Of a stretch of DNA of 64,000 bases, positions 33,001 through 36,000 are shown one piece after another. The DNA lies in the NCBI RefSeq assembly GCF_056712565.1, contig NZ_CM160072.1. The stretch is one strand, 5' to 3'. Positions within the stretch are counted from its first letter, which is position 1. The number at the start of each line of letters is the position of its first letter. The position numbers are program-made.

Positions 33001-36000
33001 ACCGCACCGCGGCTTGAGCATTCAAGAAAGCCAGATATCGTTCGTGAAAAACTTGTGCAATTATTAGGCGATGTTTCTCGCATTGAACTGTTCGCCCGCC
33101 AGACGTCTCATGGCTTCGATGTTTGGGGTAATCAGTGCGAAGACCCGGCAGTGCAACTACACCCTGGATACGCGTTGGATATTGGCGGATTAACAAATGC
33201 ATTCAGCAATGCTCCGCTGTCACCAACAGACATCCAGGGGCGGGAGCGTGCTGCATGAACAGGGCATCACCAGCAGATTTAAGAAAATGCCTTGAAACTG
33301 CAAACATGCTTGCACACAGCGGGATCAGGTTTGTTCCAATTCCCGCTGTCACTGATGCTGAATTTGCAACACTGTCAGCAATATTCGAAAACAAAATTGA
33401 ATCACTGGCAGCAGAAGCAGAGATGGAAGAAAATCAGCAGAACTATTAAACGTTATTCCCCCGCCATCCACTTCTCAAACTTCGACGGGGAGAACGGAAT
33501 CAGATCCGTATGCTCCCCGTCAATCCATGAATCAATCATATCGGCCCACTGCTGCAACATGTAGGCGCGCTGTCTGGCGTATTCCGCTTTGTTATATACG
33601 GCGCTCACACCTTTCTGCTCATGTGCCAGAGCCTTTTCAATCCAGTCTGAAGGATAACCAGCCTCATGCAACAACGTACTGGCTGTACGGCGCATATCGT
33701 GTACGGTGAAGCCCTGAATATGCTCACCATCTTCATTTATTATTTTCACCGTTCTGTCGATCAGAGAGTTCAGCGCGGCATTAGATAATGGCTTCCGGAA
33801 ATTGTAACGACCAGGAACCAGATATTCACTTCCACCAGCGCACATCTGCAACCCAACCAATATATCCTGTGCCTGTTTAGGCAGGTAAATAACGTGCGCC
33901 CGGCTTCCCTTCATGCGGTCTGGAGGAATTGTCCATGTCCATTTTTTAAAATCTATTTCATCCCACGTTGCATTGGTGAATTCGCCCTTACGAACCATAG
34001 TGATAAGCACCAGTTTTAAAGCCATTTTCATAGTGCCCATAGCACCAATGGCATCCAGCGTGCGGAAGAACAGGCCAATTTCTTCTGGTGTCAGTGTTCG
34101 CTCTCGTGGTTTAAATATGGCGATAGACGAAGGTTTAATGTCAGCCGCAGGATTAAACAAACCATGACCACGGTCATTGGCGTGACGGTATACGCTACTG
34201 ATGATCTCCCTGGCCTGCACTGCTGTTGCCCGGCCACCGCGTTCGACAATCCGGTCACACAAATCACGAACCATTGATGTGGTAATTTCAGCCATCATTT
34301 TATTGCCAAGAACCGGAAGTATGTCACGGTCGATCACCGCCTGTTTCATTGCGCGGGTACTGTCAGCCAGGATGACGTGTTTCATATAACTGTCGGTATG
34401 TACCGCAAACGTCTCGGCACCACGAATCTTTTTGATACCGTCACGTTTAGCCGCAGCCGGTGACTGGCCTGCTTTAAGCAGCTTCTTTGCAGCAATCAGT
34501 TCTTCTCGCGCTTCTGCCAGGCTGATACCGTCACGCCCATACTGCCCGATTACCAGTGTTTCGCGGCGACCGTTGATACGGTAGTCATAGCGAAACGAGA
34601 CCGTGCCTGACGTAAGCACAGCTACATACAGCCCGTCACGATCGGAGACCTTGTACAGTTTGTCCTGCGGCTTGAGATTTTTTAATTTTGTATCGGTAAG
34701 CACAATTCACCCGTATAGAAACCATTTTCATGACGGTATGAGAGTATACCTTTAAGGTAATACCGTCACCTGTACCGACGAAAAATATGGTGTAGAGTGA
34801 ATAGAAATGAATACATAAAAACAAAAACCCTCTGTAAAAACAGAGGGTTAAATTAGTATCTGAATAGGAATGAGTTGCTATGAGTTAGCTGTTAATCATT
34901 CCCACTCAATAGTTGCTGGTGGCTTGCCGCTGATGTCATACACCACGCGGGAAATACCATTCACTTCATTGATAATGCGGTTGGAAACGCGGCCGAGGAA
35001 GTCGTACGGCAGATGTGCCCAGTGTGCGGTCATAAAGTCGATGGTTTCGACAGCACGCAGAGAGACAACCCAGTCATACTTACGACCATCGCCCATTACG
35101 CCAACGGAACGTACTGGCAAGAAGACGGTGAACGCCTGGCTGACTTTGTCGTACAGGTCCGCTTTACGCAGTTCTTCAATGAAGATGGCGTCAGCACGGC
35201 GCAGCAGGTCACAATACTCTTTCTTCACTTCTCCCAGAACACGAACGCCAAGGCCTGGTCCCGGGAACGGGTGACGGTACAACATGTCATACGGTAGGCC
35301 CAGCTCCAGACCAATCTTACGCACTTCGTCTTTGAACAGCTCTTTCAGCGGTTCAACCAGGCCCATCTTCATCTCTTTCGGCAGGCCACCCACGTTGTGG
35401 TGAGATTTGATGACGTGTGCTTTACCGGTTGCAGAAGCAGCAGATTCGATAACGTCAGGGTAGATGGTGCCCTGCGCCAGCCACTTCACGTCTTCCAGTT
35501 TCAGCGCTTCTTCATCGAATACTTCAACGAAAACGCGACCGATAATTTTACGTTTTGCTTCCGGATCGTTTTCGCCAGCCAGCGCTGACAAGAAGCGATC
35601 TTCTGCCGGTACGTGAACAATGTTCAGACCAAAGTGATCGCCAAACATATCCAGAACCTGCTCTGCTTCGTTGAGACGCAGCAGGCCGTTGTCGACGAAT
35701 ACGCAAGTCAGGTTTTTACCGATAGCGCGGTGCAACAGCATTGCGGTAACGGAGGAATCCACGCCACCAGAGAGGCCGAGGATGACTTTATCGTCGCCCA
35801 CTTGCTCGCGGATGCGGGCTACAGCGTCGTCGATAATTTTCGCTGGCGTCCACAGGGCTTCACACTGGCAGATATCACGCACAAAACGCTCCAGCATGCG
35901 CATACCCTGGCGGGTGTGAGTCACTTCCGGGTGGAACTGTACGCCATAGAAGCGTTTTTCTTCGTTGGCCATGATGGCAAACGGGCAGCTTTCGGTGCTG

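Follow-up and report, generated by a model that had tools for sequence, protein, structure and literature searches.

Layout of the locus

The window analyzed here, a stretch of 64,000 nucleotides from contig NZ_CM160072.1, contains guaA with a phage integrase gene (int) beside its 3′ end. The following features make up this locus:

1..34893, no strand: body of an ε15/phiV10-type (Uetakevirus) prophage (nucleotide matches to Uetakevirus phages and guaA-locus prophages)
33453..34703, minus strand: int, a 416-aa tyrosine recombinase of the ε15 cluster with a GTG start (Pfam domains; identity to the phiV10 and ε15 integrases)
34704..34893, no strand: int-proximal attP arm, 190 bp of phage DNA (phiV10 attP identity from 34780; arm conserved in ε15, Tyrion, SPN1S and PAT1)
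34816..34849, minus strand: phage-borne rho-independent terminator, with a stem-loop at 34826-34849 and a U-run at 34816-34825 (scan; fold; phiV10 and ε15 annotation)
34894..34910, no strand: att core (common core or crossover segment) of 17 bp, AATCATTCCCACTCAAT (three-way and four-way alignments; published core)
34896..36473, minus strand: guaA (GMP synthase), intact (ORF list; megablast)

An earlier note on this DNA had described the integrase ORF, guaA and an interval of about 190 bp with an operator-like site and a terminator, and the features themselves were confirmed, the operator-like site as an inverted repeat; based on the ORF list and the sequence, the interval between int and guaA measures 192 bp. 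The integrase (Int) matches the Pfam domains Arm-DNA-bind_3, Phage_int_M and Phage_integrase (PF13356, PF22022 and PF00589, all above cut-offs), with the catalytic tyrosine-recombinase domain matched over nearly its full length. It is identical to the phiV10 integrase at 411 of 416 positions (98.8%) and to that of ε15 at 359 of 416 (86%). The motifs VRKGE (237), HDMRR (335), LAHE (359) and AVYNK (368), located by inspection, are candidates for the catalytic R...HxxR...H...Y residues. Scanning 34500-35100 for a sigma-70-like promoter that could serve int returned none at the threshold used, and the best candidates of a relaxed scan scored 7/12; the int promoter presumably lies within the 190-bp att arm.

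The DNA to the left of this junction is the body of a temperate phage of the Uetakevirus type. Uetakevirus phages and guaA-locus prophages match the window at 1-6000 and 12000-36000, and the remaining element is collinear with Uetakevirus genomes, its structural, replication and recombination genes being present as expected and arranged as in that genus. The neighbors of the integrase gene (RecT, AlpA, PerC, MT-A70, DUF1382, int) likewise follow the order seen in phiV10. One of them may have a part in recombination:

31958..32206, plus strand: AlpA-family small DNA-binding protein (Pfam Phage_AlpA, E = 3e-5; the phiV10 orthologue is annotated as AlpA family)

This protein is a candidate excisionase (recombination directionality factor) or regulator of int.

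The att core overlaps the last codons and stop codon of guaA

For delimiting the junction, we compared the segment 33300-35300 with 5426 complete E. coli genomes by megablast. In 565 of these (~10%) the match covered at least 80% of the query, integrase and guaA included, making the guaA 3′ end a frequent integration site in this species, and it is used in several other genera of Enterobacteriaceae as well. In the remaining E. coli genomes, the match starts at query base 1595, which corresponds to window position 34894. The same segment is matched by the phages phiV10 (98%), ZX5, phiv142-3, TL-2011b, ε15 (~82%), SPN1S, Tyrion and others, and most of these alignments stop at query base 1611, or window position 34910. 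Phage homology extends to 34910 and empty-site homology begins at 34894, and the two therefore overlap by 17 bp.

We then aligned the phiV10 attP, the window and the empty K-12-type locus of strain BM28 base by base. The window is 100% identical to the phiV10 attP from 34780 to 34910 and equals guaA (attB) from 34894 rightwards, and the K-12-type locus is unrelated to the window left of 34894. The only stretch common to all three is the sequence AATCATTCCCACTCAAT at 34894-34910. In other words, the int-proximal junction (attL by the lambda convention) is an attP/attB hybrid, with phiV10 attP to the left of the core and empty-site guaA to its right. The core comprises 2 nt past the stop codon, the guaA stop codon itself (34896-34898) and the last four codons (I-E-W-E). 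Because these codons and the stop codon are part of the core, guaA is rebuilt exactly upon integration; indeed, the C-terminal 20-residue peptide of GuaA is identical to that of a K-12-type strain, and the C-terminus is thus unaltered. The exact core also occurs in ε15, phiV10 and Tyrion, and 16 of its 17 bases are invariant across the genus.

The core derived in this way has been published before. For phage vB_EcoP_ZX5, a 2022 study places a core of attgagtgggaatgatt at the 3′ end of guaA, with 190 bp separating it from the 5′ end of int, and states that this sequence had earlier been demonstrated as the attP of phiV10 and ε15; attB, attL and attR were confirmed by PCR and Sanger sequencing, and the ZX5 lysogen releases phage spontaneously (PMC9782041). 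The reported sequence is the reverse complement of ours, and the published core (ATTGAGTGGGAATGATT) is found in the window at the guaA 3′ end, overlapping the guaA stop codon, exactly 190 bp from the int start codon. In addition, a phiV10-like phage has been described as inserted in guaA in an O103:H25 outbreak strain (PMC3293862).

These comparisons bear out the proposal of the earlier note that an ε15-type phage had integrated at the guaA 3′ end, as the phage and empty-site homologies meet on the published 17-bp core. They also correct it in two respects: the note had let the prophage end at the integrase gene, some 190 bp from the guaA stop codon, and had held that the att core could not be delimited, but the three-way alignment fixes the core at 34894-34910 and the boundary inside the last guaA codons. 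On this reading, attP recombined with the attB at the guaA 3′ end by strand exchange within the 17-bp common core (34894-34910), and all DNA left of the core is of phage origin, first the 190-bp att arm and then int. We are highly confident that the region is the int-proximal junction of an ε15/phiV10-type temperate podovirus prophage that entered by Campbell-type integration at the guaA 3′ end. This arrangement is already known and published, and the locus is an ordinary, well-documented prophage-chromosome junction. For annotation, the exact prophage boundary to be used is 34893/34894-34910, and not the end of the integrase gene. This helps in marking the limits of prophages and in setting up attB/attP PCR assays; it has little import beyond annotation and raises no new question.

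The far junction in related genomes

The core occurs once in the 64-kb window, where no second copy was found with up to 2 mismatches, and window positions 1-6000 are still phage DNA. The other junction therefore lies outside the window, as had been supposed. Based on related genomes, in which such prophages span ~40 kb from guaA to yfgI, we estimate that the prophage runs past the left edge of the window by some 4-6 kb.

The direct repeat that should mark the other prophage end is known from two complete genomes that carry close relatives of this prophage, SF-468 and APEC E18055. SF-468 carries a ~40-kb prophage between guaA and yfgI, which is the neighbor of guaA in K-12, and the core forms a direct repeat there, its two copies lying 40,097 bp apart (a spacing measured in this genome). 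At the far junction of SF-468, the left flank of the K-12 locus (with the native guaA terminator, on the yfgI side) is followed by the core and then by the lysis-gene-side arm of the phiV10 attP, and the near junction differs from that of the window at a single base, located in the arm. In APEC E18055 (O2:K1:H7) the core recurs at the far junction with the same hybrid flanks. The flanks in these two genomes form the reciprocal hybrid pattern of Campbell integration, and the repeat predicted for the opposite end is thus present in the relatives with the expected neighbors. The earlier note had named the lack of such a repeat as grounds for refutation, and the outcome favors its interpretation.

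With the far junction and an estimated 4-6 kb of the element outside the window, one may ask whether the prophage is still an active integrated phage or a fixed remnant that can no longer excise. Defective prophages are common in E. coli, and the best-matching genomes are mosaic, aligning in 5-8 blast pieces (at best with 98% identity across 98% of 24 kb; the collection of complete E. coli genomes contains none that is identical). On the other hand, Int is full length and has a nearly identical counterpart in phiV10, a viable phage; both the junction and the att arm are intact; and the window has the structural, replication and recombination genes expected of the group in Uetakevirus order. 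We therefore regard a remnant as unlikely.

Repeated sequences in the att arm

The arm between int and the core contains several short repeats, one of which also has copies inside the integrase gene:

34730..34769, no strand: inverted 10-mer pair, consisting of ATGACGGTAT at 34730-34739 (inverted, 1 mismatch) and ATACCGTCAC at 34760-34769 (predicted arm-type Int sites)
34182-34191 (minus strand), 34435-34444 (plus strand) and 34525-34534 (plus strand): the 10-mer in three further exact copies within the int coding sequence (motif count)
34798-34810 and 34861-34873, no strand: direct repeat TGAATAG(A/G)AATGA (conserved in ε15-group phages)

The inverted pair includes a perfect 9-bp inverted repeat (34731-34739 and 34760-34768) with 20 nt between its arms. 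The 10-mer ATACCGTCAC is present in four exact copies in the 64-kb window, against ~0.1 expected, and all four fall in 34182-34769, within 600 bp of one another. Its plus-strand positions 34435, 34525 and 34760 are conserved in phiV10, ε15 and Tyrion, and among these three phages only phiV10 matches the inverted copy at 34182 exactly. As free phages, all three have one more copy on the opposite att arm, ~70 bp past the core. The int coding strand carries the 10-mer as GTGACGGTAT, and Int has the motif RDGI at residues 57 and 87; from the coordinates and the sequence, the copies at 34435 and 34525 appear to encode these two motifs. In the GenBank record of ε15 (NC_004775), ATACCGTCAC is annotated as “integrase” protein_bind sites. 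Arm-type sites are the best reading of the 10-mers, because these cluster on both att arms and Int has an arm-binding domain. Going by this and by the database annotation, the 10-mers in the arm would be bound by the N-terminal arm-binding domain of Int.

The earlier note had termed the inverted repeat operator-like, and its setting lends some appeal to the idea of an operator through which the prophage repressor or another transcription factor controls int: the int promoter must be located in the stretch from the terminator to the int start, which is where this perfect 9-bp palindromic pair sits, and a site for regulated expression would fit the lack of a clear constitutive promoter in our scans. 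However, the half-site also occurs singly, outside any palindrome, both within int and on the opposite att arm, a distribution typical of recombinase arm sites; a search allowing up to 1 mismatch gave no copy of the 10-mer around the repressor gene (29020-29604) or in the rest of the immunity region, with the exact copies all confined to 34182-34769; and the ε15 record attributes the 10-mer to the integrase. We consider an operator at 34731-34768 improbable, and the inverted repeat is most likely a pair of predicted Int arm sites.

In the ε15 record, the equivalent 39 nt are also labeled “RNaseIII, mRNA processing”, which would make the repeat a hairpin in the int leader RNA that is processed by RNase III. 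The sense-strand RNA can fold at -16.1 kcal/mol, but this fold is marginal when set against shuffled sequences (z = -2.3, with 5 of 200 shuffles as good), and its inner part needs short stems and a 3-nt loop. Moreover, in Tyrion and the CH468 prophage the left arm reads TGTCGG in place of TGACGG, differing at the third base, and the right arm carries no compensating change. RNase III processing here seems quite doubtful to us, although it is compatible with the repeat serving as a pair of arm sites and the two are not mutually exclusive.

The repeats TGAATAG(A/G)AATGA, which the core also contains in imperfect inverted form (34896-34908), are possible further protein-binding sites. IHF sites are annotated in the ε15 record; these are unsupported here by a search of 34704-34930 with the IHF consensus WATCAANNNNTTR, which gave no match with up to 1 mismatch.

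A phage-borne terminator downstream of guaA

The arm also holds the sole terminator-like site in 34500-35100, a 10-bp stem on the minus strand (34826-34849) that is followed by TTTGTTTTTA. The RNA hairpin has a folding energy of -15.9 kcal/mol (z = -5.1), and none of 200 shuffled sequences folded as well. This terminator is annotated in the records of both phiV10 and ε15. The lysis operon and int flank it in the free phage, and in the lysogen it comes to lie directly downstream of guaA and upstream of int.

Seen from the window alone, the terminator looks chromosomal, as its stem is the same as that of the native guaA terminator in K-12 (hairpin CCCTCTGTAGTAACAGAGGG): read on the plus strand, the phage hairpin is CCCTCTGT-AAAA-ACAGAGGG versus CCCTCTGT-AGTA-ACAGAGGG in K-12, with 25 of 27 positions the same. 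If it were indeed the native one, the prophage boundary would fall between the terminator and int. This can be dismissed with near certainty, since the whole stretch of the window from 34780 to the core, terminator included, is 100% identical to the phiV10 attP, the spacer that separates hairpin and core is of phage type and measures 44 nt as opposed to 24 nt at the native site, and lysogens carry the native terminator at their other junction. A chromosomal origin is thus refuted by the phiV10 attP identity together with the far junctions of SF-468 and APEC E18055. What had been called a guaA-side terminator does stand on the guaA side of the interval, but it is made of phage DNA.

In lysogens, the terminator after guaA is therefore supplied by the phage. 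It would end guaA transcription in place of the native terminator, which is moved ~40 kb away to the other junction. Because guaA, the terminator and int share one orientation, it would also insulate int by keeping guaBA read-through out of it.

The close likeness of the two hairpins raises the question of where the phage terminator came from. We scanned species-representative genomes for the core followed, after 18-48 nt, by AACCCTCTG, and found this combination in 15 species. Four of the sites look empty (E. coli, Escherichia sp. MOD1, Buttiauxella sp. B2 and Serratia silvae), and ε15-type integrases mark another six as occupied junctions (in Citrobacter, Superficieibacter, Klebsiella and an Enterobacteriaceae MAG). 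At the apparently empty sites of Escherichia, Buttiauxella and Serratia silvae, the hairpin AACCCTCTGT-loop-ACAGAGGGTT follows guaA after spacers of 25-43 nt; in Buttiauxella sp. B2, where pdeF and ppx lie downstream, the hairpin is identical to that of the phage, loop included. The simplest reading is that the hairpin is a conserved native guaA terminator that was copied by the phages. We lean towards the view that the core-proximal part of the ε15-group attP (core, spacer and terminator, ~90 bp) is a captured host guaA 3′ flank, kept for terminating guaA and for shielding int. If so, the phage would bring along substitutes both for the last codons of guaA and for its conserved native terminator.

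One could also take the “native” terminator of Escherichia for a scar left by an old element, but this idea was set aside because the hairpin occurs at sites that look empty in Buttiauxella and Serratia silvae too; Citrobacter sp. NCU1 is ambiguous in this regard.

Relationship to other guaA and 3′-end integrators

The closest known counterparts are phiV10 (NC_007804) and ZX5 (MW722083), which share with this prophage the 17-bp core, the 190-bp distance to int and the guaA 3′ end as target. The att arm of phiV10 shows no difference between 34780 and the core, and ZX5 is 98% identical over the tail-fibre/antirepressor region at the left end of the window. Gene content is otherwise mosaic; phiV10 matches only 23% of window positions 1-6000 and has a different tailspike/receptor module. 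Salmonella phage ε15 (NC_004775) has the identical 17-bp core and the same 10-mer positions, an integrase that is 86% identical, and the same order of lysis genes, core, terminator, 10-mer sites and int; it differs in its nucleotide identity of ~82%, its Salmonella host and its serotype-conversion cargo.

The integrase had been described earlier as P4-type, which holds in the loose sense of domain architecture: like the P4 integrase and other enzymes that integrate at the 3′ ends of genes, Int combines arm-binding, central and catalytic domains, and the logic of integration is that of P4, in which a copy of the 3′ end of the target gene in attP lets the gene be rebuilt. The label does not fit with respect to target and clade. 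The ε15 integrase, that of the genomic island CMGI-3 and their relatives form a cluster of their own, every member of which targets the guaA 3′ flank; the tRNA-targeting P4 cluster, which stands beside it, is distinct but belongs to the same subgroup (IntSXT) of tyrosine recombinases (PMC8138268). Members of the CMGI-3 type, likened here by their description, are genomic islands or ICEs and not podoviruses (PMC8138268). Enzymes of the P4 cluster insert at tRNA genes, whereas the integrase described here acts at the protein-coding gene guaA.

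Phage-borne terminator and its native counterparts

The hairpin and U-run that separate guaA from the integrase gene form a terminator carried by the phage, almost a duplicate of the one that natively follows guaA.

34816-34849: phage-borne terminator, near-copy of the native guaA terminator

By sequence comparison, the guaA terminator of Escherichia coli K-12 (about 2450-2480 of L003, the K-12-type attB locus) is the same as the phage terminator at 25 of 27 positions, and the apparently empty site of Buttiauxella sp. B2 (L022) has a stem-loop identical to that of the phage terminator; Serratia silvae (L012) provided a further locus for this comparison. 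As judged from these sequences, the phage seems to carry replacements for both the host terminator and the last guaA codons.

Core and terminator in other genomes

The att core and the terminator were also found together outside E. coli. In Citrobacter sp. NCU1 (L021), the order after guaA is core, phage-type spacer (45 nt, counted from the 16-base core) and terminator. Two ORFs then stand in the place of an integrase: one is multihaem-cytochrome-like, the other has a Tat signal, and as judged by eye the pair is tentatively torC/torZ-like. Either a lost element left this arrangement as a scar, or it is native flanking DNA that is similar to the phage arm. Core and terminator occur without guaA upstream at two loci. 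On the 2.6-kb contig of Ca. Erwinia dacicola (L019), the bases upstream of the core match the lysis-side phage arm; attP is thus intact, and the contig therefore represents a free or tandem phage. In Serratia nevei (L018), the upstream sequence is unrelated and the integrase is absent from the locus. An intact attP core, with phage sequence flanking both sides, was also found in E. coli GPEC1337 (NZ_CM142779; L004, 4550-6602), where it is contiguous with int and the Rz/lysis genes within the chromosome. This layout suggests either a tandem pair of prophage copies at guaA or an assembly artefact.

Integrase gene

Two copies of the 10-mer, a predicted integrase arm-type site, lie within the int coding sequence.

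34435-34444: 10-mer copy within int
34525-34534: 10-mer copy within int

The Int protein has an RDGI motif at residues 57 and 87, and from the coordinates we read both motifs as encoded by these copies, with codons that are unchanged in phages of only about 82% identity. Since the copies read as RDGI codons, their conservation could reflect a function of the DNA site, of the protein, or of both. At its 3' end, int (-, end 33453) converges with a DUF1382 gene (+, end 33449), with 3 nt between the stop codons, so that early-left transcription would run head-on into the int 3' end; no terminator was seen between the two genes.

Tailspike gene

1 to about 1560, minus strand: tailspike gene cut by the window edge, from alignment to GPEC1337 and SF-468

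In both of these strains the tailspike is about 1040 aa long, and the left window edge falls inside the aligned gene. Because their tailspike is annotated there with an endosialidase catalytic beta-propeller domain, the alignment points to an ε15-like prophage specific for the K1 capsule. An O2:K1:H7 strain is among the best-matching lysogens, and the related phage ZX5 likewise has a K1 host.

Putative adhesin genes beyond guaA

39615-42170, minus strand: very large ORF, 851 aa, BIg21 and InvE_AD repeats (Pfam)
42287-47665, minus strand: very large ORF, 1792 aa, BIg21 and InvE_AD repeats (Pfam)

Both ORFs are made of repeated adhesion domains and adjoin the ORF at 38170-39546, which we tentatively take to be xseA; presumably they resemble the ratA/ratB-sinH type island beside xseA in Salmonella (CS54).
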